Assembly: GCA_964658305.1 (NCBI GenBank)
Contig: OZ210884.1
Span: 1,674,001 to 1,738,000, forward strand
DNA: 64,000 bases
Source of the DNA: Leptogorgia sarmentosa
Taxonomy: Eukaryota
Direction: 5' to 3'
The position numbers and the translations under genes were made by a program. The notes beneath the pieces are model-generated. The model saw only the letters and a program-made list of their open reading frames with translations, ran no database searches and was not told the origin of the DNA. This document shows, one piece after another, positions 27,739 to 64,000 of the stretch; the stretch's first letter is position 1, and every line of letters begins with the position of its first letter.

Positions 27739-27835
27739 GTACGCCATGCAGCTGCGAACCGAACACAGTGGAGAAAGGATGTCCTAGCCTTATGTGCCTC
27801 ATGGCACAAAGAGATTTAAGTTAAGTTAAGTTAAG
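27739..27835 (+). mobile_element. 3' terminal fragment of an RTE-clade non-LTR retrotransposon with a (TTAAG)n tail
   Basis: Translates AAANRTQWRKDVLALCASWHKEI*, matching the RTE ORF C-terminal RxxWRxxVxALC pattern, followed directly by (ttaag)4. Flanked by a ~73-bp direct repeat (27666-27738; second copy split into 27836-27842 and 30124-30191). Confidence 0.75.
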
Positions 27836-27842
27836 TTATTCA

Positions 27843-33905: not shown

Positions 33906-33909
33906 AAGC

Positions 33910-35170
33910 GATATCTAAACTGCGCTAGCAGATACAAAACATCGGAAATCCTATTATATAATAACCATGATGAAATACTCGTCAACAGTGCATTTTGGTA
34001 GTGATACTAAAGTGTATAATTGCAGATACAAAATATACAGAAATCCTGTATATATAACCATGGTGAAATACTCGTCAAATGTGTAGTTTGGTAGTCATAC
34101 TAAAGTGTATAATATGCAGAATGATACAAAATATACAGAAATCCTGTATATATAACCATGGTGAAATACTCGTCAAATGTGCAGTTTGGTAGTGATACTA
34201 AAGTGTACTTGCAGATACAAAATATACAGAAATCCTGTATATATAACCATGGTGAAATACTCGTCAAATGTGCATTTTGGTAGTTATACTCCTGAATGAC
34301 AGAAATCCTGTAGACCTGTACATATAACCATGTTGAAATACTCGTCAAATGTGTAGTTTGGTAGTGATGCTAAAGTGTATAATATGCAGATACAAAATAT
34401 ACAGAAATCCTGTATATATAACCATGTTGAAATACTCGTCAAATGTGCAGTTTGGTAGTGATACTAAAGTGTATAATATGCAGATACAAAATATACAGAA
34501 ATCCTGTATATATAACCATGTTGAAATACTCGTCAAATGTGCAGTTTGGTGGTGATACTAAAGTGTATAATATGCAGATACAAAATATACAGAAATCCTG
34601 TATATATAACCATGTTGAAATACTCGTCAAATGTGCAGTTTGGTAGTGATACTAAAGTGTATAATATGCAGATACAAAATATACAGAAATCCTGTATATA
34701 TAACCATGTTGAAATACTCGTCAAATGTGCAGTTTGGTAGTGATACTAAAGTGTATAATATGCAGATACAAAATATACAGAAATCCTGTATATATAACCA
34801 TGTTGAAATACTCGTCAAATGTGCAGTTTGGTAGTGATACTAAAGTGTATAATATGCAGATACAAAATATACAGAAATCCTGTATATATAACCATGTTGA
34901 AATACTCGTCAAATGTGCAGTTTGGTAGTGATACTAAAGTGTATAATATGCAGATACAAAATATACAGAAATCCTGTATATATAACCATGTTGAAATACT
35001 CGTCAAATGTGCAGATTGGTAGTGATACTATAAAGTGTACTTGCAGATACCAAATAACAGAAATCCTGTATATATAACCATGGTGAAATACTCGTCAAAT
35101 GTGCAGTTTGTGGTAGTGATACTAAAATGTAATTGCAGATACAAAATATACAGAAATCCTGCATAATATA
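33910..35170 (-). repeat. Satellite array, ~94-bp unit, ~14 copies; inverted relative to, and homologous with, the left array
   Basis: Unit gcagatacaaaatatacagaaatcctgtatatataaccatgttgaaatactcgtcaaatgtgcagtttggtagtgatactaaagtgtataatat shares a ~55-bp core with the reverse complement of the left unit. Confidence 0.97.
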
Positions 35171-42148: not shown

Positions 42149-42803
42149 CAGTGGCGGATTAACGATTCATGGGGCCCCTGGCTATTTTTCTGATTGGGCC
42201 CCCAGACCTGGACGCTGCTTTACCTTTCGGCTACATCCAGCTACCTGGCTAGACTGTGGATTTTTTTCTGGAGCTTTTATATCCACATAAACAACAAAAC
42301 AACAAAAAACGTGAAGGTGTTATTGTTTTTAGACTTGATTGAATTAAATAGCTTTCCTGCGAGCTTTTTGCGCAGCAAAAGTGTCGATAAGCTCTTCAAA
42401 ATCAATCCCATTTAAGATTTCATGTTCGATGCTCATGAGCGACAGCTTGCTGAGTCGCTCCTGGCCCATAGTACTCCGCAATGCGTTCTTTATGCGTTTC
42501 AACTTAGAGAAAGAACGCTCTCCACTGCAATTGGAAGCCATCATACAGAGGTAGATCCGGAGTGCAATGTTCACATTTGGAAATGTTTGTATCCAGTCAT
42601 TGTCTTTCAGCAATAAAAACATACCAAGTTCAATTTGGCTTTCTTGTTTTTTAGTAGGGTCAGTGGTGTCTTTGCTCAAATCTACCGATTCTACCTTGAA
42701 CATTGTTTAAAAAATAGTAAGGCGGCCGCGGGCCCCCATGGGACCAGCAAATCTGCGGGCCCCTGGCTGTAGCCCAGTCAGCCCCCCCCTTAATCCGCCA
42801 CTG
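42149..42803 (-). mobile_element. Internally deleted hAT transposon
   Basis: TIRs cagtggcggattaa / ttaatccgccactg; 8-bp TSD gtaagagg (42141-42148 and 42804-42811). Confidence 0.95.
42344..42703 (-). pseudogene. hAT transposase C-terminal dimerisation-domain fragment
   Basis: FPNVNIALRIYLCMMASNCSGERSFSKLKRIKNALRSTMGQERLSKLSLMSIE. Confidence 0.92.
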
Positions 42804-42846
42804 GTAAGAGGTCATTTCTCTGTTTTCAAGAAACACAACCAGAATC

Positions 42847-43042
42847 ATGGACAGAAGTGCCGTTATGCGTCTCGTGATTTTCATAGCCCTGAATTATTTC
42901 ACAGTTCAAGTCTTTTGTCAACAAGGGAGGTGCTTGGGATCAAATAACTACTGTCTTGGTCAACTTGGCGACACGAAGGCAGTTTGTAAAAACGGCTCCT
43001 GCTACTGTACTGGCAAAGACTATGATTATAATACATGCTTGC
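42847..43042 (+). CDS. Receptor gene exon 1: signal peptide + Cys module 1
   Basis: MDRSAVMRLVIFIALNYFTVQVFC-QQGRCLGSNNYCLGQLGDTKAVCKNGSCYCTGKDYDYNTCL; donor gtaagt. The ORF track reads through the 90-nt intron that follows. Confidence 0.88.
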
Positions 43043-46000
43043 GTAAGTTGTCTTGTAAAAACGTTTTTTCCGTCTACATAATGTCATTTCACTTTCTCTT
43101 GTCTACCACTGAATCTAAATTTCTCACCCTAGCTGATGCATATGGATGTAAAATTGTTGCAAATTCTGATACCACGTACACTTGTACTCCCGATAACAGT
43201 TCACCAAAGTACGAGATTCACGTACTAGCTGTGTACAGGGCTACCAGCGGACGTCCTTCAACAGCTGCCAAGGCCAGTGTCGACATCATCAGTCCTGAAA
43301 AATCCAACAGACCAATTATACTTGTTCTCAGTAGCTTCGAAGCTGTGAATTGGGTTCTTAATATACCATCTCACACAACTATCGCAAAAGTAATCCTGGT
43401 TAGTACAGTATGGTCAGAGGCGTAGCGAAGGGTATACATTTGGGGGGGAGGGGTTGCGAGATTAGTTTTTGGGGACAAAAGGGCGTAGCTACGGCGTGGT
43501 TTGGGCGTGAATGAACTACACCATAATTATTTTAATAAAGAATTATACGATATATAATTGGTTGAGAGTGAGAACTATTTATTTTCAAAATACGCGAAAC
43601 AATTTCTTAAAATACATGCTAAAATATTAGGTCTCAAAGTTTTGAGAAATAGCATGTTCACTCAAGCCACCTATACACTTCACACTCACATTGGCGACAA
43701 CAAGTTTCATGTGTCCACGGACATGTCGATGATATTAAGCCTTTGAGTAAGGTAGTGCCGTCATGTCTATTTTGTTTAAGAGGACATTTTTTCTAACACG
43801 CAAAAACCGAAATCTTTTTGGCTTCTCAAAATGAAATTTTTCTATGATTATTTTCTGGATGGAACAGTTTGCTACTTGGCAAACCGCGTTTGGGGTTTCT
43901 GAAAGTTAAAGGAATATTAAAATTAAGAGCGTCAATGTGCGTATGACCGACGCAACCATGCAATTGGAAGAATTTGTTTATAACCGTGCATTGAAGTAAT
44001 ATTTCAACCTGATTTTCCATTGGGCGTACTCTCCAAAATCTTTTTACTTTGGTTTGATATCATAATTTATGAAGCCATTTAAGTTAGTCTGACATGTGAG
44101 AAACCTGAAAATTCAAAATATTATGAATTTTCATAATCTTGAGTATTGAGCGCGAAATACGTGCATGGAGAAAATTTTCGTCTTAGCTGACGAGTTTGCC
44201 GTATCAATGATAAACGCATCTTGCCGGAGATTCTCCTATGACTTTGCAGTGTTTTCATTTTGATTGTTATTATTACAATGTTTTAACTTACCATTCCTAC
44301 CACCCAATGGTATATTTATTATTCTCAATATACAAATTTAAAAATGTAATTCTCAACAATATGAGTATATACATTCTCTTCTTTATATTAAAATGGTAAT
44401 GTTGAAATGCAGGAATATGTATTTGTTATTGGTTTCTGTACTTGAAAATTGACGAATTTCCTATCCTTAATTTTTCATGTTATTATTTTTTGTAGGTGGC
44501 TTACGACATATTAGAAAGTTCGGTCAGCGGTAACGTCAGTCGAGTGAAAAATGTTGAACGAATTGGAATAAAGAACTCCGAGTGGTCTTGTGGATACGGG
44601 AGTGATTTAGTTGGATGCCATACAGTTAAGAATTTGAAGTAAGGAAATAATTAATCTCAGTGCCGGCCCGTCCATTTTCATGTTGGGGGGTATAATATAA
44701 ATTATTATATGGCTGACATAAATGGCGCACGCTTATTGGTTGATTAGCGGTCCGGAAAAAGTCATCTTGCCCGCTCAGGAAAGTCATCTTGCCCGCTCAG
44801 GAAAGTCATCTTGCCCGCTTGTGAAACTATTATACAAATTAAATTTTTAAGGAAACTAAATCTTATTATGCCGTACGGTGACGTTGAAGAACACTCCCCG
44901 ATTGAATTTTGCTGTCCCAGAAAAACACACGATCCAAAATGCTGAGTTTCAAAGTGAAAATAACGGCGAACAAAACAACTTACAGTTCGAAAACTGTTGC
45001 GAACATTGTTTTCACAGCACTTAAATGGCTTCATTTCGCATCGAACATTTGTTGTTTATCACGACATTTACATTATATTTTTTTATTCAATTTTTTCCTT
45101 TGTTGTATTTTTATTGTTTTGTTGTTGTACAGCAGTGAACGGCCAGAAACCGCCATTCAGTATGCCAGTGTATACGGCTGAACGTTTCAGCAGCGAAAGT
45201 GTTTTCTAGTTCTTTCTACAATGTCAGAACAAATTGCGATCGAACAAAGCCATATAATAAATCCCTTATTAACCTCGTTTGCTCGGTCTGTACGGGAAAG
45301 TATTGCCTTCGGTTTTTAACGCACTGACCTCGCTCCTTCGTCGCTCGGTCTGTACGAAAACCCTCAGGCAATACTTTCCCGTACAGACCTCGCACTCGGT
45401 TAATAAGTCCTTAATATAGAACCATAAATAAAATGCACCATAAAATGCAAAATTCTTAGTGTTAAAACCGATTGCGACATTTAGTTGAAGGTGCGTCAGC
45501 ATATATGTTATTTGCTCTTTTTTGCGTCAACCTTGCGCCGTTTATTTACATGACAATCGACAAATGAATTCACATGTTGAAATTTAATGAAGAACTATTA
45601 CGCGATGCAAAGAAATGAGTCGGACCCAGAATATATCAGGGCCGTATTAAGTTTCTCAGGGTCAGCGGCATTCGGTGAAGTTTAACTAGGGGCCACGTAT
45701 ATGTTCAGCTAACCGTACTATTGTGTTTATCTAGAAAGAATTAAAAGGTCACTATATGCCATATTACTTGGGAGGGGGGGTTAATACTCTCTTGCCGCCC
45801 CCTCCGGTCGCGCTGGCCCTGATTAATCTAGGATGTGCTAATCAGGGAAACAGTTGATACTCATTAGTTATCATGCAGTTAAGTTGGAATACGTTCATGA
45901 CATTCAATTGCATGTAAATGTTACAGGCAATTTGCTCAACAACATATCTTTTGCTTGTTTTTGGATAAAAATTATTCAAAGGCACCGTATTACGTAACAG

Positions 46001-49000
46001 TATAAAAAAATGATGAAGACCTCTTTTCGGGCGAGGAGCAAACCATATTTGTGGTACATCTTGGCCATCTTTTAACCAGTTTCAAACGATTTCAAAATTT
46101 TATAATGACTTGCTTTCAACCAAAAACCACGCTTTTGTCTTTCTTCTTCAACTATAGTCGTTTTTTAATGTTGAAAATGGGTAAAATCTAGAAAGATTCC
46201 GATGTAACAACAAAGAGGTTAATCCTATTAATTAACCGAGAAAGCCGAGAAAGCGAAAAAAATAATAGAATACATTTTAAGAGAAGCTGAGAGACGAGAT
46301 CAAGTACTTACATGTAATTCAGTGCAAAATAAAACTTTATTGCAATACACAGCGTGCAAGAGGAGGCGGCTATTAATATTTCATGGGCGGTATACTGTCC
46401 ATTATTTCTCCCCATAGATCCTATGACTTTTTCATTTTTTGCAATATATAATTTTTTAGTGCGAAATTATTGAACAATTTTCTTCTGGATGATTAAGTTA
46501 TAAAAGGATTTATTATGGATGATATTGCAAAATTTTCACCTTCGTTGCGTTTTTTTATTTGCCAGACAAATTCATAAAAGTTTTGGAGTAGTGACTTCAT
46601 TCCAAGGTACTTACGAGAAAAGCCAATGGTCTTTGGAGTTATCCGCTTTTAACGGGAGTGTAAACAATGGTAGGTTTAGTCAGCTATATACCCACAGCTC
46701 GTTGCATTTATTATTTTGAGCTTTATACTTTTATACGGATGTCGAACCTTATTAGACAGTAGGCTATAGTTGTTTTTGCCCTGCTTTTAGAAGATTGTGG
46801 CGAAGTCAACAGTAGAACATTCAACATCGACCGACCGGTCCATAATAATACAATTATTTACCGTCCATTGAAAGAATAAAATTGGTGTGCGCGCAAGCGC
46901 CGGAATTGAAAAGTTCAAAGGAAAAACATATCTGCACTTTTTCCTAGTCGAAACGTAGTTTTGTTTGAAAATTCAACTTTGACACTTAGCTATATAACAA
47001 AAGTTTTATTTACTGAAACATAGGTGAACAGTAAGTATCGACTGTGCAGTATCCTCCAGTACGGATCGAAGTCACACAGTCAATAACAATTAATTATTTA
47101 ATTTATGCATGGCAAGCACTTGTTTTGAGGAATGGCGCGATCTGATTGGCTGCTTCCAGGGCAAAATTTTCCCGTATTGCCGATTGGCAAAACGGAATTT
47201 TTTCTGCCCTGCCAAGAAAACAAACACAGAAACTTTAAAATTGAGGAAATTTTATTTAATAAAGTATAAAAGATTAAAATGAGCGACGAGGAGTATTTTG
47301 AGAGCGAGTTTTATTACCCAGAGGTTGACAATGAAGGATACGAACCGTTTTTTGTCAGTTTAAATTTGAGATCATTTTGAAACGCACATATGCCTTATAA
47401 TAAAAAACTTACTGACTTCCAATGCTCGGGCTGTACGGGAAAGTATCAAACCTCAGTTTGATATTTTCCCGCAAAGCCCTTACTCTACGTCAGTAAGTTA
47501 TTATTTATCAATGCAGCGAATTGACAGTATTGCTTTTCCATAAGAACATCATTTGTATAATATATGAAAAAATATTTTGCGAATTTGTTTTTCAGGTACG
47601 AGCATAAACACATCTATTCTTCCAACGGTTTGGTCAAAGGTTCGAAGACAGAAATGCTTGGGCGACTATTGTCTAGGGGAATATAATGACATGAAAGCTG
47701 TTTGCAAAGACGGATACTGCTACTGCAATGGAAAAGATTACGATTACGATACTTGTTTGCGTAAGTTCACACCAGGTCATGGTTTTAATTTAAATCAGTG
47801 AATTAATTGAATTGTAGGGGGGAATTTACATTTTCTATAGAACATTTTGGTTTTATGTTATGTGAACAAGAATATAAGATAGTTCCCCCTCTTTCCTTTA
47901 CCGCTAAGTGTTGTGCCTATTACATAACTGTATTAACTTCAGGTAATGAGGTGCATCTATCTGGTCCTATCTCAAGCCAAAAAAATTAATATCGAAAAGG
48001 TTTTAATTTTGAAAAGAATTTAACATGAGAACAACATGAAGCAAGACAATAGATGAATATGGAATGAACGTGACAAGAAAATCAAAAGAAAATCTCATGA
48101 ACATCTCATGAACGTATAGGAAATTCGTAAAATGATCGAAAATTTCCTATGATATTAAGAAGCTAGTACGGGCTGTTTCCCGGACTTGGCAATTTTATCT
48201 ATTTCATCTGCCAACATTATTATCCAAGATAATTAGGCAAGGTACAATTTGTTTGACACATTTGCAATCTTTTGTAAAGTGTTCGTATTACCACACTGTA
48301 AATCTGGCAGTGTTGTGACAACACCAAAAAAGTGTAAACATACACTGATTAGGTGTAAATTGAAACTTTACACCGTTTAAAGTAATATTACATTATTGCT
48401 GTGTACTTCGACACCACCTCAGTGTACAAGTAACACTGCTTTAGTGTGAAGCAAGGAAATACCTTGCTGACACTTATTTTTGTGTAAACTTACACCAAAG
48501 TGTGCATGTGAGATAAAATATGTACACTGTGAGAGTGTGAATACCCACCTGTTTAGTGTAAAATGTAGAACACTCTTTTGAGTGTAAGTTTACACTTCGC
48601 ATAGTGCAAAATTACACCAACGACAAGTTAAACTATTAGTCTAAAAATTATCATTATATTATTATTTATTACTTATTTAGTGTAAAATTACACATAACCT
48701 TGTTAATATACACTTTTAACAACTCAATATACAGTCATGTGGTGTAAACGAACACCAGGAACCAAAGTATAGTTTCCCTTGCTGTGGTGTAATTGTACAC
48801 AGTTTTTTTCCATGTTAATTATATCTGAATTCGAAGTTTCCTACAGGACTACACATAGGAATTAATTTTCCTGTAGGAATTCCACTCGAGTATTTCGCAG
48901 CCCGGGTTGGGGAAGTAATTTCGCGGTGAAAAACTCCCAACGCGAAAATTGAAATTTCCACTGTTTCGCAACCAATAATTCAACAAATCAATATGGAAGA

Positions 49001-52000
49001 CATGAACGAAGAGATTTTTGTAATAGCGCTTCGAAAAGGGTCTCGTAGTCGCAGTAATTTATTACCCGTTATAATATTAGTAGGGTAAAATCTGCAACGT
49101 GATTGGCTAATGAGCGTTCATTATAACAGCGTAATGCACGCATCTAGCTGTTAAATTTCTCCCGCGATTCTTTGGTTTGACAAAAAGACAATAAAAATAC
49201 ATATATACTAAAAATACATCCATAAAAAACGCTTGAATTGTTTGCTTTCGCTCAGCTAAAGGAATAAAGCTGTGTTGCTGCTTGGCAACATTTGAGAACA
49301 CGCTTGATTACATGTGAAGAGAATTGTAATTTTGATCTTCCTAACGAAGTTTTTTGTTGCGCTAATATTCTCTTATATTATAAAAGAAATAGATAACGAG
49401 TCGCGTGCCATTATGCTGTTGTAATTGCACTCGGGCAATGTTGTGAGAATACTCGAGAATCGCGTAAAACACTCGGCTACGCCTCGTGTTTTACGCGATT
49501 CTCTCGTATTCTACCAACATTTCCTTGATGCATTATAACAGCATAATGGCACGCGACTCGTTATCTATTTCTTAATTATTACCTATAAATAATATTAGTC
49601 CTTCAATAATTGAGATCAGTAGCTATGCTTTACCATATTTGGGTACCCATGCATTGCCCAAAAATTTGCATGTCATTTCCACTAAGACGTTTCAGAAGAG
49701 TGCGTCTAGGAGTTTTTCTCTTTTTAGCGTTAGGTAAAATTCTTTTCAGAATACCTTTTTCTTGGGTATTTAATGAGTATTCAACATCCGCTTCTTCGGT
49801 CACTTGAACGCCTCGTGACACCGTAACACTTGAATAAACAATTTTCTTTCCCCTAGCTGATGCTTATGGATGTAAAATTGTTGCAAATTCTGATACCACG
49901 TACAATTGTACTCCCGATAACAGTTCACCAAAGTACGAGATTCACGTACTAGCTGTGTACAGGGCTGTGTACAATTCAACAGCTGCCAAGGCCAGAGTCG
50001 ACATCATCAGTCCTGGAAAATCCAACAGACCCATTGTACTTGTTCTCAGTAGCTACGAACCTGTGAATTGGGTTCTTAATATACCATCTCACACAACTAT
50101 CGCAAAAGTAATCCTGGTTAGTACAGTGTGGTCAGAGGCGTAACGAAGGGTATACATTTGGGGGGGAGGGGGAGGGGGGGGGGGTTGCGAGATTAGTTTT
50201 TAGGGGACAAAAGGGCGTAGCTACGGTGTAGTTTGGGCGTGGACGAACCACACCATAATTATTTTAATAAAGGATTATACCATATATAATTGGTTGAGAG
50301 TGAAAATAGCATGTTCACTGAATAGCATGTTCACTCAAGCCACCTATACACTTCACACTCAGATTGGCGACAACAAGTTTCATGTGTCCACGGACATAGT
50401 GGATGATATTACGCCTTTGAGTAAGGTAGTGCCGTCATGTCTATTTTGTTTAAGAGGATTTTTTTTCTAACACGCAAAAACCGAAATCTTTTTGGCTTCT
50501 CAAAATGAAATTTTTCTATGATAATTTTCTGGATGAAACAGTTTGCTACTTGGCAAACCGCGTTTGGGGTTTCTGAAAGTTAAAGGAATATAAAAATTAA
50601 GAGCGTCAATGTGCGTATGACCGACGCAACCATGCAGTTGGAAGTATTTGTTTATAACCGTGCATTGAAGTAATATTTCAACCTAATTTTCTATTGGGCG
50701 TACTCTCCAAAATCTTTTTACTTTGGTTTGATATCATAATTTATGAAGCCATTTAAGTTAGTCTGACATGTGAGAAACCTGAAAATTCAAAATATTATGA
50801 ATTTTCATAATCTTGAGTATTGAGCGCGAAATACGTGCATGAAGAAAATCTTCGTCTTAGCTGATGAGTTGGCCGTATCAATGATAAACGCATCTTGCCG
50901 GAGATTCTCCTATGACTTTGCAGTGTTTTCATTTTGATTGTTATTATTACAATGTTTTAACTTACCATTCCTACCACCCAATGGTATATTTATTATTCTC
51001 AATATACAAATTTAAAAATGTAATTCTCAACAATATGAGTATATACATTCTCTTCTTTATGTTAAAATGGTAATGTTTAAATGCAGGAATGTGTATTTGT
51101 TATTGGTTTCTGTACTTGAAAATTGACGTATTTCTTATCCTTAATTTTTCATGTTATTATTTTTTGTAGGTGGCTTACGACATATTAGGAAGTTCGGTCA
51201 GCGGTAACGTCAGTCGAGTGAAAAATGTTGAACGAATTGGAATTCAGAACTCTGAGTGGTCTTGTGGATTCGGGAGTGATTCAGGTGGATGCGATACAGT
51301 TGAGAATTTGAAGTAAGGAAATAATTAATCTCTGTGCCGGCGCGTCCATTTTCATGTTGGGGGGTACAATATAAAATATAGAACCGCAAATAAAATGCAC
51401 CATAAAATGCAAAATTCTTAGTGTTAAAACCGAATGCGACATTTAGTTGATGGTGCGTCAGCATACATGTTATTTGCTCTTATTTGCGTCAACCTTGCGC
51501 CGTTTATTTACATGACAATCGACAAACGAATTCACAAGTTGAAATTTAATGAAGAACTATTACGCGATGCAAAGTCGGACCCAGAATATATCAGGGCCGT
51601 ATTAAGTTTCTCTGGGTCAGCGGCATTCGGTGAAGTTTAACTAGGGGCCAGGGATATGTTAAGCTAACCGTACTATTGTGTTTATCTAGAAAGAATTAAA
51701 AGGTCACTATATGCCATATTACTTGGGAGGGGGGTTAATACTCACTTGCCGCCCCCTCCGGTCGCGCTGGCCCTGATTAATCTAGGATGTGTTAATCAGG
51801 GAAACAGTTGATACTCATTAGTTATCATGCAGTTAAGTTGGAATACGTTCATGACATACAATTGCATGTAAATGTTACAGGCAATTTGCTCAACAACATA
51901 TCTTTTGCTTGTTTTTGGATAAAAAAATTTGAAAGGCACCGTATTACGTAACAGTATAAAAAAATGATGAAGACCTCTTTTCGGGCGAGGAGCAAACCAT

Positions 52001-55000
52001 ATTTGTGGTACATCTTGGTCATTATTTAACCAGTTTCAAACGATTTAAAAAATTTATAATGACTTGCTTTCAACCAAAAACCACGCTTTTGTCTTTCTTC
52101 TTCAACTATAGTCGTTTTTTACTTTAGTCGTTTTTCAACTACACTATTGTGATGAGTGGGGAAAATTCACATCAGTCATCGAGTCATCGAGTCATCGAGA
52201 CATCGAGTCATCACTCATCGAGTCATTCAGTCATAGTGTAAACTCCGGGGGGAGCGTCCCAATTTCTCTTGATGTGCGAAACTCCGTAGTGTACCGATGT
52301 CCTTTCAATTTTTAAGCAGAAATTATCCAATTGTAACGTTATACTATTGTTCATCATTATTTGCAGCTATTCGTATGGATAAGAAATTTAACTAGGGAAG
52401 TAATGTAATCTAAGATGCCTCGAGTTATAGTACACAATGCCGCAAAGCCCCTCCGGAATTTGGATTTTTGCGAAAATTGCAACTCAGCACGTGTTCGTGG
52501 GATGAAATATTTGTGTAATACAATATGGCGGACGCTAAGGAGTGCGACATTGAATCAGTAATGTGGCCAAGTTTCAACAATGTTTGAACATGTTGCCAAA
52601 GCGGTTAAAATGTTATTTGAATATCTGCGATGAATCTAGAAAACAAGTAAGGGTTGTCATGAACAAAAATAGCCATAGCCCATACTATCAACTGCTGCCG
52701 TGGATATTATAAATCTGCATACATTTTTAGTTTGCCGTCTTTAATTTTAAAACCATAATTTTAACGTGTTTGTTTCCATTTGTTCTCGCCATAGTCTCGG
52801 CCTAGCGGTTATGGAAATATTCCCATTCATGTACTCCCAATGTAAAAGAATAATTTACTACAATCAAATTCAGCCAGTTGCTCGCTTTTGCCTTGTAATA
52901 TATTTTAGTCGACTAAATAGACGACATGATTCATGATCATACTGATAGAAAATAGTCAACAGGACAACAGCTTCAGTAAGCTTGGGTTGCTTGTCTAGAT
53001 TCAATTGTTTACATGATTAGTGGCGGCGACTCAGGGATTCTTCAATTTCGCAGCAAGTAGAATTAACTATATATGTAGGCGAAGAAAAGTAAATTTAACG
53101 TTGGCCTAAAATTGTGAGTAGACTGAATTTCCATTACTACGCAGAGGTAGCCTACAGGTTGTACATTTGTTGAGTACTGCATAATCGCCCGTTCGTTGTT
53201 ACACTCCATTTTATTATTATAACGCGTGAAGGTCAGAGGTCAGAGAATCAACAAAATAATGTCGAGCACGCGAAATTTGAACGTGCGTATTTCCTTTTTT
53301 GGCTATAAAATCTTTTAAATTATTTTATTATACTACATCAAGCTTTTCTTTGAGCTGATGTTACATGGAATGATTTTTTAACGGCAATTCGAATCACAAC
53401 AGGGCCGAACAGGCCGCCAAGCGACACCAGCTTTTGCTCGATATCTTCGTAGAAACTTTGCACTATCCTTGGATTCCTAGTTAATGTTGAAAATGGGTAA
53501 AATCTAGAAAGATTCCGATGTAACAACAAAGAGGTTAATCTTATTAATTAACCGAGAAAGCCGAGAAAGCGAAAAAAATAATGTGAATACATTTCAAGAG
53601 AAGCTGAGAGACGTGACCAAGTACTTAGATATCATTCAGTGCAAAATAAAACTTTATTGCAATACACAGCGTGTAAGAGAAGGCGGCTATTAATATTTCA
53701 TGGGCGGTATACTGTCCATTATTTCTCCCCATAGATCCTATGACTTTTTCATTTTTTGCAAGATATTATTTTTTAGTGCAAAATTATTCAACAATTTTCT
53801 TCTGGATGATTAAGTTATAAAATGATTTATTATGGATGATATTGTAAAATTTTCAACTTCATTGCGTTTTTTTATTTGCCAGACAAATTCATAAAAGTTT
53901 TGGAGTAGTGACTTCATTCCAAGGTACTTTCAAGAAAAGCCAATGGTCTTTGGAGTTATCCGCTTTTAACGGGAGTGTAAATAATGGTAGGTTTAGTCAG
54001 CTATATACCCACAGTTCGTTGCATTTATTATTTTGAGCTTTATACTTTTATGCAGATGTCGAACCCTATTAGACAGTAGGCTATAGTTGTTTTTGTGCTG
54101 CCTTTGTTTTTGCGAAGATTGTGGCGAAGTCTCCATTTTATTATTGTTCTTATTATTTCCGTTGCGATGACAGAATCGGTCAACAGTAAACTTTCATCAT
54201 CGACCGACCGGACCATAATAATACATTTATTTACCGTCCATTGAAACAGTAAAATTGGTGTGCGCGCAAGCGCCGGAAATGAAAAACATATCTTGCTTCA
54301 AAGGAAAAACATATCTGCTTGGTTTCCTAGTCGAAACGTGATTTTGTTTGAAAATTCAACTTTGACAATTAGCTATATAACAAAAGTTTTATTTGCTGAA
54401 ACATAGGTGAATAGTAAGTATCGACTGTGCAGTATCCTCCAGTACGGATCGAAGTAACTCTGTGAATAACAATTAATTATTTAATATATGGCAAGCATTT
54501 GTTTTGGGGAAGGGCGCGATCTGATTGGCTGCTGTCAGGGCAAAATTTTCCAGTATTGCCGACTGGCAAAACGGATTTTTTTCTGCCCTGCCAAGAAAAC
54601 AATCACAGAAACTTTAAAATTGAGGAAATTTTATTTAATAAAGTATAAAAGATTAAAATGAGCGACGAGGAGTATTTTGAGAGCGAGTTTTATTACCCAG
54701 AGCTTGACAATGAAGCATACGAACCGTTTTTTGTCAGTTTAAATTTGAGATCATTTTGAAACGCACATATGCCTTATAATAAAAAACTTACTGACTTCCA
54801 ATGCTCGGGCTGTACGGGAAAGTATATCAAACCTCAGTTTGATATTTTCCCGCAAAGCCCTTACTCTCAGTCAGTAAGTTATTATTTATCAATGCAGCGA
54901 ATTGACAGTATTGCTTTTCCTTAAGAACATCATTTGTATAATATATGAAAAAATATTTTGCGAATTTGTTTTTCAGGTACGAGCGTAAACACATCTATTC

Positions 55001-58000
55001 TTCCAACGGTTTGGTCAAAGGTTCGAAGACAGAAATGCATGGGCGACTATTGTCCAGGGGAATATAATGACATGAAAGCTGTTTGCAAAGACGGATACTG
55101 CTACTGCAATGGAAAAGATTACGATTACGATACTTGTTTGCGTAAGTTCTCACCTTGTCATGGTTTTAATTTAAATCAGTGAATTAATTGAATTGTAGGG
55201 CGGGGGAATTTACATTTTCTATAAAACATTTTGTTTTTATGTTATGTGAACAAGAATATAAGATAGTTCCCCCTCTTTCCTTTACCGCTAAGTGTTGTGC
55301 CTATTACATAACTGTATTAACTTCAGGTAATGAGGTGCATCTATCTGGTCCTATCTCAAGCCAAAAAAATTAATATCGAAAAGGTTTTAATTTTGAAAAG
55401 AATTTAACATGAGAATAACATAAAGCAAGACAGTACATGAATATGGAATGAACGTGACAAGAAAATCACAAGAAAATCTCATGAACATCTCATGAACGTA
55501 TAAGAAATTCGTAAAATGATCGAAAATTTCCTATGATATTAAGAAGCTAGTACGGGTTGTTTCCCGGACTGGGCAATTTTATCTATTTCATCTGCCAACA
55601 TAATTATCCAAGATAATTAGGCAAGTTACAATTTGTTTGACAATCTTTCTTTTGCAATCTATGCTTTACCATATTTGCGTACCCATGAGGCAAACATTTG
55701 CATGTCATTTCTACTAAGACGTTTCAGAAAAGTGCGACTAAGAGTTTTTCTCTTTTTTGCGTTAGGTAAAATTCTTTTCAGAATACGTTTTTCTAGGGTA
55801 TTAAATGAGTATTCAACATCCGCTTCCTCGGTCACTTGAATGCCTCGTGACACCGTAACACTTCAATAAACAATTTTCTTTCCCCTAGCTGATGCTTATG
55901 GATGTAAAATTGTTGCAAATTCTGATAGCACGTACACTTGTACTCCTGATAACAATTCACCAAAGTACGAGATTCACGTACTGGCTGTGTACGCGGCTAC
56001 CAGCGGACGTCCTTCAACAGCTGCTAATGCCAGTGTCGACATCATCAGTCGTGGAAAATCCAACAGACCAATTATACTTGTTCTCAGTAGCTCCGAAGCT
56101 GTGAATTGGGTTCTTAATATACCATCTCACACAACTATCGCAAAAATAATCCTGGTTAGTACAGTAAGGTCAGAGGCGAAGCGAAGGGTATACATTTGGG
56201 GGGGGGGGGGGGGGTTTGCGAGATTAGTTTTTGGGGTCAGAAGGGCGTGGCTACGGCGTGGTTTGGGCGTGGATGAACTACACCATAATTATTTTAATAA
56301 AGGATTATACGATATATAATTGGTTGAGAGTGAGAACTATTTATTTTCAGAATACGGGAAACAATTTCTTAAAATACATGGTAAAATATTAAGTCTCAAA
56401 GTTTTGAGAAATAGCATGTTCACTTAAGCCACCTATACACTTCACACTCAGATTGGCGACAACAAGTTTCATGTGTCCACGAACATAGTGGATGATATTA
56501 CGCCTTTGAGTAAGGTAGTGCCGTCATGTCTATTTTGTTTAAGAGGACATTTTTTCTAACACGCAAAAACCGAAATCTTTTTGGATTCTCAAAATGAAAT
56601 TTTTCTATGATTATTTTCTGGATGGAACAGTTTGCTACTTGGCAAACCGCGTTTGGGGTTTCTGAAAGTTAAAGGAATATAAAAATTAAGAGCGTGAATG
56701 TGCGTATGAGCGACGCAACCATGCAGTTGGAAGAATTTGTTTATAACCGTGCATTGAAGTAATATTTCAACCTAATTTTCTATTGGGCGTACTCTCCAAA
56801 ATCTTTTTACTTTGGTTTGATATCATAATTTATGAAGCCATTTAAGTTAGTCTGACATGTGAGAAACCTGAAAATTCAAAATTTTATGAATTTTCATAAT
56901 CTTGAGTATTGAGCGCGAAATACGTGCATGGAGAAAATCTTCGTCTTAGCTGATGAGTTTGCCGTATCAATGATAAACGCATCTTGCCGGAGATTCTCCT
57001 ATGATTTTGCAGTGTTTTCATTTTGATTGTTATTATTACAATGTTTTAACTTACCATTCCTACCACCCAATGGTATATTTATTATTCTCAATATACAAAT
57101 TTAAAAATGTAATTCTCAACAATATGAGTATATACATTCTCTTCTTTATGTTAAAATGGTAATGTTTAAATGCAGGAATGTGTATTTGTTATTGGTTTCT
57201 GTACTTGAAAATTGACATATTTCTTATCCTTAATTTTTCATGTTAATATTTTTTGTAGGTGGCTTACGACATATTAGAAAGTTCGGTCAGCGGTGACGTC
57301 AGTCGAGTGAAAAATGTTGAACGAATTGGAATCAAGAACTCCGAGTGGTCTTGTGGATACGGGAGTGATTCAGATGGATGCCATACAGTTAAGAATTTGA
57401 AGTAAGGAAATAATTAATCTCAGTGCCGGCGCGTCCATTTTCATGTGGGGGGTACAATATAAAATATAGAAATGGTGATATCACGTGTTTTGTGTCGCGC
57501 CATAAAATGCAAAATTCTTAGTGTTGAAACCGACTGCGACATGTAGTTAAAGGTACGTCAGCATACATGTTATTTGCTCTTTTTTGCGTCAACCTTGCGC
57601 CGTTTATTTACATGACAATCGACAAACGAATTCACAAGTCGAAATTTAATGAAGAACTATTACGCGATGCAAAGAAATGAGTCGGACCCAGAATATATCA
57701 GGGCCGTATTAAGTTTTTCTGCGTCAGCGGCATTCGGTGAAGTTTAACTAGGGGCCACGGATATGTTCAGCTAACCGTGCTATTGTGTTGTTATAGAAAG
57801 AATTAAAAGGTCACTATATGCCATATTACTTGGGAGGGGTGGGGGGGTTAATACTCACTTGCTGCCCCCTCCGGTCGCGCTGGCCCTGATTAATCAAGGA
57901 TGTGCTAATCAGGGAAACAATTGATATACTCATTAGTTATCATGCAGTTAAGTTGGAATACGTTCATGACATTCAATTGCATGTAAATGTTACAGGCAAT

Positions 58001-61000
58001 TTGCTCAACAACATATTTTTTGCTTGTTTTTGGATAAAAATTATTCAAAGGCACCGTATTACGTAACAGTATAAAAAAAATGATGAAGACCTCTTTTCGG
58101 GCGAGGAGCAAACCATATTTGTGTTATATCTTGGCCATCTTTCAACCCGTTTCAAACGATTTCAAAAATTTATAATGGCTTGCTTTCAACCAAAAACCAC
58201 GCTTTTGTCTTTCTTCTTCAACTATAGTCGTTTTTTAATGTTGAAAATGGGTAAAATCTAGAAAGATTCCGATGTAACAACAAAGAGGTTAATCTTATTA
58301 ATTAACCGAGAAAGCCGAGAAAGCGAAAAAATAATTTGAATACATTTTAAGAGAAGTTGAGAGACGAGACGAAGTACTTAGATATCATAGAGTGCAATAC
58401 ACTGCGTGTAAGAGAAGGCGGCTATTAATATTTCATGGCCGGTATACTGTCCATTATTTCTCCCCATAGATCCTATGACTTTTTCATTTTTTACAATATA
58501 TTATTTTTTAGTGCAAAATTATTGAACAATTTTCTTTTGGATGATTACGTTATAAAATAATTTATTGTGGATGATATTGTAAAATTTTCACCTTCATTGC
58601 GTTTTTTTATTTGCCAGACAAATTCATAAAAGTTTTGGAGTAGTGACTTCATTCCAAGGCACTTTAAGGAAAAGCCAATGGTCTTTGGAGTTATCCGCTT
58701 TTAACGGGAGTGTAAACAATGGTAGGTTTAGTCAGCTATATACCCACAGTTCGTTGCATTTATTATTTTGAGATTTATATACTTTTATACAGATGTCGAA
58801 CCCTATTAGACAGTAGGCTATAGTTGTTTTTGTGCTACGTTTGTTTTTGCGAAGATTGTGGCGAAGTCTCCATTTTATTATTGTTCTTATTATTTCCGTT
58901 GCGATGACAGAATCGGTCAAGAGTAAACATTCATCATCGACCGACCGGTCCATAATAATACATTTATTTACCGTCCATTGAAACAGTAAAATTGGTGTGC
59001 GCGCCAGCGCCGGAAATGAAAAACATATCTTGCTTCAAAGGAAAAACATATCTGCTTGGTTTCCTAGTCGAAACGTGATTTTGTTTGAAAATTCAACTTT
59101 GACAATTAGCTATATAACAAAAGTTTTATTTGCTGAAACATAGGTGAATAGTAAGTATCGACTGTGCAGTATCCTCCAGTACGGATCGAAGTAACTCTGT
59201 GAATAACAATTAATTATTTAATATATGGCAAGCATTTGTTTTGGGGAAGGGCGCGATCTGATTGGCTGCTGTCAGGGCAAAATTTTCCAGTATTGCCGAC
59301 TGGCAAAACGGATTTTATTCTGCCCTGCCAAGAAAACAATCACAGAAACTTTAAAATTGAGGAAATTTTATTTAATAAAGTATAAAAGATTAAAATGAGC
59401 GACGAGGAGTATTTTGAGAGCGAGTTTTATTACCCAGAGCTTGACAATGAAGCATACGAACCGTTTTTTGTCAGTTTAAATTTGAGATCATTTTGAAACG
59501 CACATATGCCTTATAATAAAAAACTTACTGACTTCCAATGCTCGGGCTGTACGGGAAAGTAAGTTTTCCCGCAAAGCCCTTACTCTCAGTCAGTAAGTTA
59601 TTATTTATCAATGCAGCGAATTGACAGTATTGCTTTTCCTTAAGAACATCATTTGTATAATATATGAAAAAATATTTTGCGAATTTGTTTTTCAGGTACG
59701 AGCGTAAACACATCTATTCTTCCAACGGTTTGGTCAAAGGTTCGAAGACAGAAATGCATGGGCGACTATTGTCCTGGGAAATATAATGACATGAAAGCTG
59801 TTTGCAAAGACGGATACTGCTATTGCAATGGAAAAGATTACGATTACGATACTTGTTTGCGTAAGTGCTCACCTTGTCATGGTTTTAATTTAAATCTCTG
59901 AATTAATTGAATTGTAGGGCGGGGGAATTTACATTTTCTATAGAACATTTTGTTTTTATGTTATGTGAACAAGAATATAAGATAGTTCCCCCTCTTTCCT
60001 TTACCGCTAAGTGTTGTGCCTATTACATAACTGTATTAACTTCAGGTAATGAGGTGCATCTATCTGGTCCTATCTCAAGCCAAAAAAATTAATATCGAAA
60101 AGGTTTTAATTTTGAAAAGAATTTAACATGAGAATAACATGAAGCAAGACAATACATGAATATGGAATGAACGTGACAAGAAAATCACAAGAAAATCTCA
60201 TGAACATCTCATGAACGTATAAGAAATTCGTAAAATGATCGAAAATTTCCTATGATATTAAGAAGCTAGTACGGGATGTTTCCCGGACTTGGCAATTTTA
60301 TCTATTTCATCTGCCAACATAATTATCCAAGATAATTAGGCAAGTTACAATTTGTTTGACAATCTTTCTTTTGCAATCTATGCTTTACCATATTTGCGTA
60401 CCCATGAGGCAAACATTTGCATGTCATTTCTACTAAGACGTTTCAGAAAAGTGCGACTAAGAGTTTTTCTCTTTTTTGCGTTAGGTAAAATTCTTTTCAG
60501 AATACGTTTTTCTTGGGTATTAAATGAGTATTCAACATCCGCTTCCTCGGTCACTTGAACGCCTCGTGACACCGTAACACTTGAATAAACATTTTTCTTT
60601 CCCCTAGCTGATGCTTATGGATGTAAAATTGTTGCATATTCTGATACCACGTACACTTGTACTCCTGATAACAGTTCATCAAAGTACGAGGTGCATGTAC
60701 TGGCTGTGTACAAGGTTATCAACAGACGTCCTCCAACAGCTGGTGATTCCAACGTCAATATCATCAGTCGTGGAAAATCCAACAGAGCTATTGTGCTAGT
60801 GCTTGGCAGTTACGAACCTGTAAACTGGATTCTCGATATCCCTTATAATATTTCCATTAGCAAAGTTATACTGGTTAGTAGCTATACACAAATACATTGC
60901 CAAAATAAAATTAAGGCTTATTAACCTAGTACGAGGTCTGTACGGTAAATTATTGCCTGAGTGTTTTCGTGCTAACAATTGCAAACCGAGCGACGATGGA

Positions 61001-64000
61001 GGTACGTGCGTTAAAAACCGAAGGCAATGCGAAAACGGATTTATTACATCGCTTTGTTTTAACTTTGTAGAAAAAACCAGAAAATATTTTGGCTTGTGGA
61101 ACTTTCAGCCGTATACATGCACTTGCATACTGCATGGCGGTTTCATTGCTGTAAAAGAACAAAACAATAAACATGCATAATGCATAGTGCAAAGGAAAAT
61201 AATTTATAATGTAAATGTTGTGATAAACAACAAACGTTCGATGCGAAATGAAGCCATTAAATGCTGTGAAAACAATGTTCGCAACATTTTTCGAACTGTT
61301 GCTTTGTTCGGCGTTATTTTCATTTTAAAACTTAGCATTTTCGGTCGTTTGTTTTTCTGGGACAGTAAAATTCTACCGGGGAGTGTTCTTCATCGTCACG
61401 GTACGGCATAATAACATTCTGTTTCCTTAAAAAAAATATTTGTACAGTAGTTTCATGAGCAGGGAAGATGAATATGCGAGCGGGCAAGATGACTTTCCTA
61501 AGCGGGCAAAATCACATTTTCCAGTCCTCTAATCGACCAATCAGCGTGCGCCATGCATTTATTTCAGCATATAATAAACCTAATTCTGTTGTGACCTTGC
61601 ATTTGTAAAATTATTATAATTATGTGCTTATACGGCTTTTCCCAGGTCATGCACAACTGTAGTTACTTTCCTTGGTGTTTTTAAATCGAACTTGCTGAAT
61701 TACTACTCTGTATCGTTGAACATTGATAATTACAATCTTGAATACTCCTGAACATTTAAGATTATATGTTTAAAAATTAATGTGATTGTGTTGGTAGCCT
61801 TTCACGTCCGATATTGTGTTGTTGTATAATATTTCGACATTTTAAAATGATTATTTCCCTTTATTATAATCAAATACACAATCTACCTTCCTTTGGGACA
61901 TCCAAGAAACATTCACAACAAAATAGCGACAACATAGCTACTTATTGAAGTTTATATATTTATTAAACTTAATTGCAATTATGTTGTATATGGCAGTTGT
62001 ATATGGCAGGGCTAACACAACAGTATTACATCAATTACTGTGGACCTTTTAACTTCTCCAACATAAATTGATTTTCGAACTTAAATAAAAACAGAAATAT
62101 AATACAACCGAAAATCAGAAAAATCTCACATCAATCTCGGCACTCGATGATTTAAAATGCCTAAAATGCAAACGTCAGTCGAGATTTCGAGTTAGATATT
62201 TCGAGTTAGATACATGTTCGCCACATTCACAGTTCACAATAGGGGGACTTATAGCTACGACAAAATAACTCGCGACTTTGAATCACACAAGATGCGACTA
62301 TCGTCCGACCTAAACACGCCTATATAGCCTAAACGGTATAAAATGCGTGCATGCGTGTCTTGGCTAGACAGTCTCGTATAAATACACCAAAATGGTCAAA
62401 GATGCATCGCGACATATTTACTATTTTATTTTTAAAAGTACGTTGTTTTCAACATTGGTGGAAGTAACATGTTGTAGGCCAATGTGGGCGGGCTCTTTTG
62501 ATCGGACGAACTATACCTTAATTTAATACAAGCAAACTAACCTGGTCTAAAATCATCTCCATTTCATTTGAACAATCCGGTGGTTATTCCTGCTATGTTT
62601 TTTTTGTTCTTTAGGTTTCCTATTACATTCATGAAAGTTCTGTCGGTGGTGACTTAAGTCGAGTGAAAAGTGTCGAACGAAAGGGAACGAGAGACTCGGA
62701 TTGGGATTCAGGATACGGTAGTGACTCGGGTGGCGGCGGGACAGTGGGGATGCTAAGGTAGGTAAAACGATCATTTGAAACATTTTAGTCCATAGATATA
62801 TGTTATTTACCGGCTGGGAGGTCCGTACGGACCGACCTAAACGGTGAAAAATAGATTTATTTTTCTCTCCTCGATGTTATGATAAAATTCGTCAAAAATT
62901 CCAGTGTTGCGTAGTAGATTTTGAGATCAGTTTGTTTGTTTACTTTGCTACTCAATCGCAAGTATGGCTGCTGAACAGCCAAGACGAAGTGAGAAAAAAC
63001 CCTTCAATATTTAGACGCATTTTCTTCAATATTCACGCTCTTTCACTCAAAATTAAAATGAAAAAGGTGGACTTATTAAAATTATTTATTTTCCTGGTCG
63101 TTTCACGATACAAACATGGGTAAAATACGCTTTAGACACCGAAATATTTCGCCGAGAATGTTTTGTTTTGTTGCCATTCTGATGAGACGTGTTTTTGTCG
63201 CTGTAAATACCCCCGAAATAACCCTTAGCATAATAAAATGAACTTTCATGTGTTCTTTATCGCCTAAATTCGTTTTGAATGTTTTAATAAGCGGCCATTC
63301 AATTTTAAAAAAACAAAAACATTGACTATATTTCTATTTAATCTACGAGAATGCGAGCCGTCCGTACGTAGGATACGGACCTCTCGCCAACCAATCAGAA
63401 AGCTCTATTTAGGTTACGAACCTGGAAAAAAATAATTTATGATATTATAGAATGTTCATATTAATTATGTGATGCGAATTGCCAAATCTTCCATATTCAT
63501 TGCTTATTTTTACTCGCTAGACAAATCGACAAACGATTTGGTGTCGTTACATCATTCCAAGGCACTTACGTATCCAATCGATGGTCAATTGAATTGTCTA
63601 ATGATACTAATGTTGGTAGGTTTGTCTAGATGTTTTCAATTTTTTTTCACCCCCTAAATTGTTTTTAGTGTTTATGGTGAGACTGTTGAGACTGTGAGGT
63701 GTAATTATAAGGGAATTATAATTAGTAAAACAGATTAAACGTTCGCTGACCAAGATGCCCTTGTTGTCCCTTGTTGTCGTTTTAGAGCTTTGGGCATGTG
63801 TGGATGCGTCGATGTCTCTGTGTTGTACCACAGAAATGTTTCAGTCTTTCTTTATATTTAATTAATACGCTCCTTTCAAAGGCTCCATAATTAATATGTA
63901 GCTATATACCCAATATCTTCATATAGCTACAGCTCAAGGAAGTTCTCCAACGCCGGCGTCGTCCTCAAACAGCAGCATCGAGATCGTTGTAGGAATCACA
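42847..64000 (+). CDS. Multi-exon gene (at least 17 exons, at least 934 aa): signal peptide + 4 x [6-Cys module + beta-rich domain] + S/T stalk + start of probable TM helix; 3' end outside the window
   Basis: All exons listed below are bounded by GT/AG, phase-compatible (1,0,2,1 cycle) and stop-free; they sum to 2802 nt. Confidence 0.88.
43133..43398 (+). CDS. Receptor gene exon 2 (module 1)
   Basis: ccctag|PDAYGCKIV...EIHVLAVY...RPIILVLSSFEAVNWVL...KVIL|gttagt. Confidence 0.9.
44496..44638 (+). CDS. Receptor gene exon 3 (module 1)
   Basis: tttgtag|VAYDILESSVSGNVSRVKNVERIGIKNSEWSCGYGSDLVGCHTVKNL|gtaagg. Confidence 0.88.
44701..45412. mobile_element. Crypton-like insertion found only in duplication unit 1
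   Basis: Absent from units 2 and 3 (empty site ggtacaatataaaatatagaa). Has the ttattatatggc / gccatataataa pair and a terminal hairpin (ggtctgtacgggaaagtattgcct / aggcaatactttcccgtacagacc); no TSD seen. Confidence 0.75.
46566..46669 (+). CDS. Receptor gene exon 4 (module 1)
   Basis: ttgccag|QIHKSFGVVTSFQGTYEKSQWSLELSAFNGSVNN|gtaggt. Confidence 0.88.
47596..47760 (+). CDS. Receptor gene exon 5 (linker + Cys module 2)
   Basis: tttcag|TSINTSILPTVWSKVRRQKCLGDYCLGEYNDMKAVCKDGYCYCNGKDYDYDTCL|gtaagt. Confidence 0.88.
48270..49620. mobile_element. Composite insertion found only in unit 1: ACAC/GTGT-rich element (~48290-48805) plus an element ending in a 190-bp hairpin (49384-49573)
   Basis: Absent from the paralogous introns at ~55650 and ~60370; hairpin arms are aagaaatagataacgagtcgcgtgccattatgctgtt and its reverse complement. 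Confidence 0.75.
49857..50116 (+). CDS. Receptor gene exon 6 (module 2)
   Basis: Paralog of exon 2 with an in-frame net 6-nt loss (VYRAVYNST); AG/GT intact. Confidence 0.88.
51170..51312 (+). CDS. Receptor gene exon 7 (module 2)
   Basis: Paralog of exon 3: ...IQNSEWSCGFGSDSGGCDTVENL. Confidence 0.88.
52121..53480 (+). mobile_element. Helitron/Helentron-like non-autonomous insertion found only in unit 2
   Basis: Inserted in the T-run of gtcgttttttaatg; (agtcatcg)n microsatellite near the 5' end; ends with the small hairpin atccttggat and CTAG; no flanking TSD. Confidence 0.6.
53883..53986 (+). CDS. Receptor gene exon 8 (module 2)
   Basis: Paralog of exon 4: ...FQGTFKKSQW... Confidence 0.88.
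54977..55141 (+). CDS. Receptor gene exon 9 (Cys module 3)
   Basis: Paralog of exon 5; AG/GT intact. Confidence 0.88.
55889..56154 (+). CDS. Receptor gene exon 10 (module 3)
   Basis: Paralog of exon 2; AG/GT intact. Confidence 0.88.
57259..57401 (+). CDS. Receptor gene exon 11 (module 3)
   Basis: Paralog of exon 3: ...SCGYGSDSDGCHTVKNL. Confidence 0.88.
58618..58721 (+). CDS. Receptor gene exon 12 (module 3)
   Basis: Paralog of exon 4: ...FQGTLRKSQW... Confidence 0.88.
59696..59860 (+). CDS. Receptor gene exon 13 (Cys module 4)
   Basis: Paralog of exon 5; AG/GT intact. Confidence 0.88.
60608..60873 (+). CDS. Receptor gene exon 14 (module 4, diverged)
   Basis: ...EVHVLAVYKVINRRPPTAGDSNVNIISRGKSNRAIVLVLGSYEPVNWILDIPYNISISKVIL|gttagt. 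Confidence 0.9.
60912..61577. mobile_element. Crypton-like element; inverted, diverged sibling of 44701-45412
   Basis: Reverse-complement similarity, e.g. gctgtgaaaacaatgttcgcaaca and gagcgggcaagatgactttcct. Confidence 0.7.
62615..62757 (+). CDS. Receptor gene exon 15 (module 4)
   Basis: ctttag|VSYYIHESSVGGDLSRVKSVERKGTRDSDWDSGYGSDSGGGGTVGML|gtaggt; same 143-nt length as exons 3, 7 and 11. Confidence 0.9.
62795..63440. mobile_element. Crypton-like element of the same structural class
   Basis: ttatttaccggctgggaggtccgtacgg start and ccaaccaatcaga near the far end. Boundaries approximate. Confidence 0.5.
63521..63615 (+). CDS. Receptor gene exon 16 (module 4)
   Basis: cgctag|QIDKRFGVVTSFQGTYVSNRWSIELSNDTNV|gtaggt. 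Confidence 0.88.
63927..64000 (+). CDS. Receptor gene exon 17 (partial): S/T/P stalk and start of probable TM helix
   Basis: catatag|ATAQGSSPTPASSSNSSIEIVVGIT, phase-compatible with exon 16. Confidence 0.7.

Follow-up and report, generated by a model that had tools for sequence, protein, structure and literature searches.

The orphan region of endoglin has been called a new fold of unclear origin, with tubulin cofactor C as its sole distant look-alike, and it was proposed that OR1 arose from an ancestral OR2-like gene by duplication and circular permutation (PMC5464963). Echinoderms are reported to have one TGFBR3 gene each (PMC10381214), and a gene of the coral Stylophora, possibly a member of the family described here, is labelled Tgfbr3 in a preprint (bioRxiv 10.64898/2026.07.18.739195). 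We analysed a stretch of 64,000 nt from Leptogorgia sarmentosa (GCA_964658305.1, contig OZ210884.1, positions 1,674,001–1,738,000 of the forward strand; hereafter the window). A gene in this window, previously proposed from a sequence-only reading to encode an unrecognised cell-surface receptor, carries four units, each consisting of a six-Cys module and a domain predicted to take the betaglycan/endoglin orphan fold. The single unit occurs in corals and echinoderms in the order of OR1 and has a bacterial sister family, and it offers a simpler, testable origin of the endoglin/betaglycan region.

Results

The splice model starts at an ATG (position 42847, + strand) and runs to position 64000. 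It has 17 exons, GT..AG boundaries at 16/16 introns, and one stop-free frame of 934 codons that is still open at the window end, in agreement with the phase-compatible exons of the sequence-only reading. The protein starts with a hydrophobic segment (residues 4–24, 19-residue hydropathy 1.6–1.8) that is signal-peptide-like as judged by hydropathy alone. The four units which that reading had described follow it, with a spacing of 6/4-10-4-1-9 in 4/4 six-Cys modules and domains of 167–170 aa that each score 198–233 bits against the family profile.

The fold was read on homologs 62–80% identical to the window units, using a 31-row domain profile (A5); a whole-protein alignment (A4) was dominated by the bacterial propeller, gave BamB matches and was dropped. 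With an E limit of 10, a search of 177635 PDB sequences returned three matches to the profile, each of them an orphan domain of betaglycan (E between 3e-4 and 5e-4). The model of unit 1 of homolog P0004, which is 62–67% identical to the window units, had a predicted local distance difference test score (pLDDT) of 90.4 and a predicted template modelling score (pTM) of 0.90, and DSSP assigned to it 14 strands and a single helix at 186–198. This agrees with the orphan fold, a parallel beta-helix-like sheet with roughly 12 strands and one helix close to its end. Foldseek with this model placed betaglycan or endoglin in all of the top 10 positions (best E 8.9e-7; rank 11 E 0.84). Among 48161 chains, only three exceeded Z 5, and the next best reached 3.6. 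These were 6MZN (Z 16.4, root-mean-square deviation (rmsd) 2.9, 153 residues aligned), 7LBG (Z 12.6, rmsd 2.6, 128 aligned) and 5I04 (Z 11.3, rmsd 3.4, 140 aligned). The weaker model of P0008 (pLDDT 53.6; 69–80% identical to the window units, with the short Cys spacing of the window type) found the same three chains at Z 10.6, 10.4 and 9.8. The models thus predict that the window domains take the betaglycan/endoglin orphan fold, and the resemblance first noticed from the family motifs was borne out. One detail of that motif alignment had to be corrected, as the betaglycan Cys before EVH matches the second Cys of the unit (Cb, below) and not the Cys of its "GC".

The six-Cys module lies outside the span of the structural matches. 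On homolog P0002 it scored 20.9 bits against EGF_Tenascin (cut-off 25), and the spacing and hairpin fit an EGF-like module (six Cys with C-x4-C-x-C-x8/9-C and a beta-hairpin); the window's own module gave no EGF match in the domain-library searches. The module thus resembles EGF but falls short of the cut-off. Searches of single exons against the Pfam and NCBIfam libraries gave nothing above cut-off, and a Toxin_2 match of a single exon (E 0.39) was put down to noise from its Cys residues and rejected. Searches of the PDB with single sequences returned no match or irrelevant ones, and two tries of an ESM Atlas search gave no usable match.

The search with exon A4 gave 91 homologs among 137 candidates; the named ones were all anthozoan, the closest being from Paramuricea clavata (80%). 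The precomputed Pfam family PF26060, probably a TGFBR3 N-terminal family, is present on 31/91 of these homologs, and not on the echinoderm or bacterial matches. Existing curated profiles therefore detect the coral domain already, and the term "unrecognised" is too strong. In the literature, titles and abstract openings (few subscription journals) revealed nothing on invertebrate or bacterial single orphan domains, and a search for the accession PF26060 found no paper.

A profile search gave 30 matches among 7986 candidates and reached echinoderm Ig-trypsin fusions and bacterial proteins. At E 0.001, A5 matched 3237 of 1.84 billion cluster representatives, of which the best 150 were covered. 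In P0134–P0136, from brittle star and sea star, Ig and trypsin domains are joined to a six-Cys/orphan-type unit. Pfam partners were found in 23 of 35 scanned relatives, which were picked mostly for having the Cys module, and nearly all are extracellular: trypsin, Fz, Ig, WAP, Reeler, TSP1, TARSH_C, Sushi, VWD, LDLR-b, C-type and SUEL lectin, kringle, MAM and LRR. One scanned relative also carries PRMT_C, possibly from a fused gene model. The labels "myosin light chain kinase-like" on P0004 and P0008 and "GPCR Fz Smo" on P0091 were rejected, as no such Pfam domain was present. A zona pellucida (ZP) domain was found neither in the 934 modelled residues of the gene, which runs past the window, nor in the 35 scanned relatives and 12 coral homologs, which supports the proposal of a ZP-less protein as far as this range extends. 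P0132 and P0227 are divergent whole-unit copies with hydrophobic C-terminal ends, possibly from non-animal eukaryotes. The unit is a widespread, unannotated extracellular module that has been repeatedly expanded in corals.

The suspected link to a bacterial family was also supported, as the profile reaches bacterial proteins with a core of ~130 aa. Among 301 genomes from the phylum to which G001 belongs, A5 matched in nine, one of them G001 itself, and three adjoining bacterial genes, each with the core, lie at G091:C172 600-4397. Hand-picking of 28 large matches gave 10 sigma-70 fusions and one BlaR1/M56 fusion (P0165, P0166, P0173, P0176, P0183, P0187, P0197, P0203, P0205, P0206, P0172). In 11/11 of them a hydrophobic helix is followed by 3–5 copies of the core, which is a membrane-sensor layout, and they are likely one-component sensors. 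Among 24 other bacterial matches, a lipobox-like motif was seen in 16 (by a loose, uncontrolled pattern) and a Cys before the core in 0, indicating that the Ca–Cb segment and the six-Cys module are missing there. A scan of bacterial genomes for the coral pattern succeeded for 0/9 candidates, and a plasmid search gave no match. In the domain tree, bacterial copies are split from eukaryote copies by a long branch (ultrafast bootstrap (UFBoot) 100), repeats cluster by species, and the window repeats group with Paramuricea (support 86), which points to an octocoral source. Five partial domains were left out of this tree. Because betaglycan is not among its sequences, the tree does not show which form descends from which.

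In each eukaryote unit, the first core strand is preceded by an additional pair of Cys, named Ca and Cb, which align to the expected fold positions and may form the disulfide between the N-terminal segment and the Cys ahead of EVH. Their spacing is 24–26 in most coral and echinoderm units (long form 24–30) and 12 in the units of the window and in two from Paramuricea. In each half of betaglycan, the Cys ahead of EVH lines up with Cb. The alignments of the five two-domain entries of betaglycan start at model residue 44–47 (Ca is residue 47) and continue through the chain end, over 149–154 residues. These alignments, for which the tool reports end points only, begin at the very chain start (residue 30–31 in zebrafish, 4 in a rat construct). 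For 7LBG, whose 156-residue chain (range 47–192) we take to be OD2 without OD1, the alignment starts no earlier than model residue 68 and covers 128 residues. This full-length match on the OD1 side against the partial match of 7LBG indicates that the unit corresponds to OD1 with the N-terminal segment attached. In zebrafish betaglycan, C55 is the equivalent of Cb (offset 27), and residue 31, presumably the first Cys, precedes it by 24 residues.

The family conserves five Tyr, each present in 114–157 of 181 domains, together with an S-Y-E-P strand end. Four of the five stand at strand ends of the model, which suggests that they may form one aromatic patch.

Every repeat unit is encoded by four exons flanked by phase-1 introns, a symmetry that is typical of shuffled extracellular modules (Table 1). 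Public contigs were examined for joints at introns 1–5 (42700–50300) and at the eight introns of 55000–64000. Joints were present at 5/5 predicted introns of the first region and, among the matches listed, at at least one of eight in the second, that is at least 6 of the 16 in total. As the joints sit at GT..AG boundaries, we regard the runs as RNA. Some contigs carry many differing letters, from alleles or paralogs; given these and the high identity of the repeats, the joints are not all assignable to one repeat, and paralogous transcripts may supply some. The gene is probably real and expressed, and no paralogous exon was found upstream of it in the window. The S/T/P stalk and hydrophobic start that had been placed in exon 17 fared worse. 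Its acceptor is one of several possible, its GC content is 53% against 35% in the preceding intron, eight hydrophobic-type residues of a possible helix lie inside the window, and no joint to it was found among the matches listed for 55000–64000. Depth of X4 and X5 over 63729–64000 is 0 and 0.41 and no contig of theirs passes the end, to which we give no weight because contigs cannot show absence.

Repeats 1–3 are 93–96% identical over blocks of 1.4–2.6 kb by self-BLAST, and repeat 4 is older (64–65% aa identity, synonymous divergence (dS) 0.8–0.9). Decay of repeats 1–3 after a recent duplication, with repeat 4 alone working, or a whole gene on its way to a pseudogene, would fit several differences between them. 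Repeat 4 keeps 5/5 family Tyr and repeats 1–3 each change one or two; departures from the coral consensus at conserved columns number 12–15 in repeats 1–3 versus 6 in repeat 4; and exons A–C of repeats 1–3 differ at 73/1519 positions, to be set beside 331/9480 in introns and 12/495 in exon D (non-independent pairs). On the other hand, neither a stop nor a frameshift was found, all splice sites are intact, the introns have 67 gap openings versus one in-frame deletion in the exons, splice joints were seen, and the extra loop Cys pair of repeats 1–3 recurs in 32/181 family domains. We regard decay as improbable.

Table 1. Exons of the gene, the duplicated segment and other features of the window
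Feature	Position	Strand	Evidence
Exon 1: signal-peptide-like start, first six-Cys module	42847..43042	+	Joint 43042/43133 GT..AG in contigs X4, X5, X6; homologous start in P0004
Exon A1: Ca and Cb, opening strands of orphan-type domain 1	43133..43398	+	Splice model, contig joints, domain profile
Exon B1: middle of domain 1, extra Cys pair in loop before helix	44496..44638	+	Splice model, contig joints
Exon C1: end of domain 1	46566..46669	+	Splice model, contig joints
Exon D1: linker, six-Cys module 2, phase 1-1	47596..47760	+	Splice model, contig joints
Exon A2: in-frame 6-nt deletion in loop after strand 1	49857..50116	+	Splice model, contig joints, domain profile
Exon B2	51170..51312	+	Splice model
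Exon C2	53883..53986	+	Splice model
Exon D2: six-Cys module 3	54977..55141	+	Splice model
Exon A3	55889..56154	+	Splice model, contig survey
Exon B3	57259..57401	+	Splice model, contig survey
Exon C3	58618..58721	+	Splice model, contig survey
Exon D3: six-Cys module 4	59696..59860	+	Splice model, contig survey
Exon A4: start of older, family-typical domain 4	60608..60873	+	Splice model, homolog search, domain profile
Exon B4	62615..62757	+	GT..AG joint to 63521, seen in X4 and X5 but not X1 or X2 (among matches listed)
Exon C4: end of domain 4	63521..63615	+	Splice model, contig survey
Candidate exon 17: short S/T/P stalk, possible membrane-anchor start, cut by window end	63927..64000	+	Splice model only
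Recent genomic tandem duplication giving repeats 1–3, units 4.7–6.7 kb, introns included	43127..60833	+	Self-BLAST
Single 296-aa frame, N-terminal hydrophobic stretch	7795..8685	-	No Pfam match
Intronless 742-aa frame	18974..21202	+	C-terminal CHAT domain (E 1e-45)
Reverse transcriptase frame, 712 aa, long interspersed nuclear element (LINE)-like	27825..29963	+	RVT_1
Adjoining tandem arrays, 119/120-bp and 94-bp units	31555..35170		
hAT transposase dimerisation remnant, ends ~140 bases before the gene's ATG	42344..42706	-	
Element of ~540 bp in two introns, opposite orientations	44702..45233 and 61048..61577		81% identity
Intronic stretch	62826..63427		Summed depth >150,000 in X1

The ~540-bp intronic element and the stretch at 62826–63427 are likely high-copy mobile elements.

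Discussion

In endoglin, the Cys C30, C53, C182 and C207 form the bonds C30-C207 and C53-C182 (PMC5464963). We infer that this run reads as two tandem units, each of Ca, a spacing of 23–25, Cb and core, with crossed bonds. The vertebrate region would then most simply be a tandem duplication of a single unit with swapped N-terminal (Ca) segments and no circular permutation, because the free unit already has the OR1 order and a plain duplication plus the swap suffices. The TGF-beta site of betaglycan is formed by an arc of OD1 loop 244–251, OD2 residues 208–213 and linker-strand F49 (PMC11865472). Residues 49 and 208–213 directly precede C55 and C225 and belong to the segments exchanged in the proposed swap; a lone unit therefore cannot form this site.

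Conversely, the single units may derive from the two-domain region by loss of OR2. Counted against this are the 12/12 tandem junctions in eukaryote-type proteins that restart with the Cys module, and the wide occurrence of the bare core in bacteria. We lean, with modest confidence, towards the single unit as the surviving ancestor. In early eukaryotes or animals, an old extracellular sensor fold shared with bacteria would have gained the Cys segment and the EGF-like module. Shuffling of phase-1 exons would have carried it into many invertebrate recognition proteins, and it would have become betaglycan/endoglin via one tandem duplication with an N-terminal swap that itself built the TGF-beta site.

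As for the function of the L. sarmentosa gene, we tentatively favour, somewhat short of even confidence, a membrane-anchored multivalent surface recognition protein with a non-TGF-beta ligand. The four-unit protein would be secreted and anchored in the membrane, and would bind its ligand at the beta-sheet end holding the five Tyr and the loop after strand 1, with avidity from the four copies; the ligand might be, for example, a polymer on a microbial or extracellular surface. Of the 25 positions that are variable among repeats 1–3, six lie in this loop, which also has a 2-residue deletion. Repeats 1–3 might drift in specificity and repeat 4 might retain the family site; signalling, if any, would go via a cytoplasmic tail beyond the window. 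The extracellular recognition and protease partners in animal relatives and the sensor-type layout in bacteria count for this reading. So do the family-wide Tyr, the clustering of repeats by species, and the transmembrane helix with a long Tyr-containing tail in homologs P0006 and P0209.

Several points weigh against it. The ratio of nonsynonymous to synonymous divergence (dN/dS) is 0.76–1.01 between pairs of repeats 1–3, with few changes, and such a value near 1 would fit relaxation as well as diversification; variable sites of these repeats fall at conserved columns 7 times versus 11.1 expected (P 0.055 for depletion). The conserved Tyr could be structural. With exon 17 lacking support and truncated at position 64000, the membrane anchor of this gene is putative, and many animal relatives have no transmembrane (TM) helix. 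The modelled fold, moreover, comes from the homologs and not from the window's own unit.

The C-terminal ends of the homologs speak to a second explanation, in which the protein is a glycosylphosphatidylinositol (GPI)-anchored or shed adhesion protein of mucus or matrix, its repeats acting as spacers or binders and no signalling taking place. Among 13 homolog C-termini, six are hydrophobic with the most hydrophobic stretch ≤4 residues from the end, one has a TM helix and six have neither; the modelled protein also has 22 N-glycosylation sequons, and S/T/P-rich linkers are present in homologs. Against adhesion alone, other homologs combine a TM helix with a long tail (177 aa with 11 Tyr in the one of those 13; a long Tyr-containing tail in P0006 and P0209), and bacterial copies occur in sensor-type fusions. 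This explanation is unlikely in our view and follows the recognition protein in rank.

Ranked just after it, and likewise unlikely, is a role as co-receptor or decoy of BMP/TGF-beta ligands in corals, in which one subdomain binds as endoglin OR1 does with BMP9. The fold and the OR1 order are shared, OR1 of endoglin binds BMP9 by itself (PMC5464963), the variable loop that follows strand 1 is homologous to the betaglycan TGF-beta binding loop 244–251, and the Stylophora gene, possibly of this family, bears its Tgfbr3 label. Nevertheless, the betaglycan site requires OD1, OD2 and the linking strands (PMC11865472), which is beyond a lone unit. Identity to betaglycan is 16–20%, and the conserved residues are common to bacteria, which have no TGF-beta. 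The TGF-beta surface of betaglycan differs from the edge strand used by endoglin (PMC11865472, PMC5464963), and the ligand therefore cannot be deduced from the fold. A dN/dS near 1 in repeats 1–3 is also not what one expects of a receptor whose ligand is conserved. The ligand is probably not TGF-beta, and the surface recognition protein is favoured ahead of adhesion, the BMP co-receptor and, last, decay.

Compared with known systems, betaglycan (TGFBR3; 6MZN, 6MZP, 9B9F, 9FDY, 9FK5, 7LBG) has the fold predicted for the coral-type unit (Z 15.9–17.0, rmsd 2.7–3.0, 149–154 residues) and, like that unit, a Cys preceding the EVH strand, an L-x-S-x-x-P-x-x-W strand and a helix-GxVTSF end. The type III TGF-beta co-receptors betaglycan and endoglin carry a ZP module that separates the orphan region from the membrane, and a single TM helix with a short tail. 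Betaglycan consists of two intertwined subdomains and a ZP domain, whereas the coral gene has single-subdomain units four times, with six-Cys modules and linkers between them. The coral-type unit folds alone in the model, without the insertion of OD2 in OD1, and its match to OD1 extends over the N-terminal segment. Betaglycan lacks the conserved Tyr of the family at the two positions that could be compared in the alignment. Endoglin (CD105; 5I04, 5HZW) also has this fold (Z 11.1–11.3). Its Cys spacings of 23 and 25 resemble the long Ca–Cb form of corals and echinoderms, but its disulfides are crossed between the halves (PMC5464963), and the window units have the short spacing. The bacterial family, comprising lipoprotein/beta-propeller proteins, extracytoplasmic function (ECF)-type sigma-70 fusions and BlaR1/M56 fusions, has the same core and conserved Tyr set, and likewise carries tandem cores (3–5 after a membrane helix), but in the 24 proteins examined it has no Cys before the core. 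The L. sarmentosa gene is a known fold in a new single-unit, repeated form, ZP-less in its modelled part, and by architecture it does not belong to the betaglycan/endoglin family.

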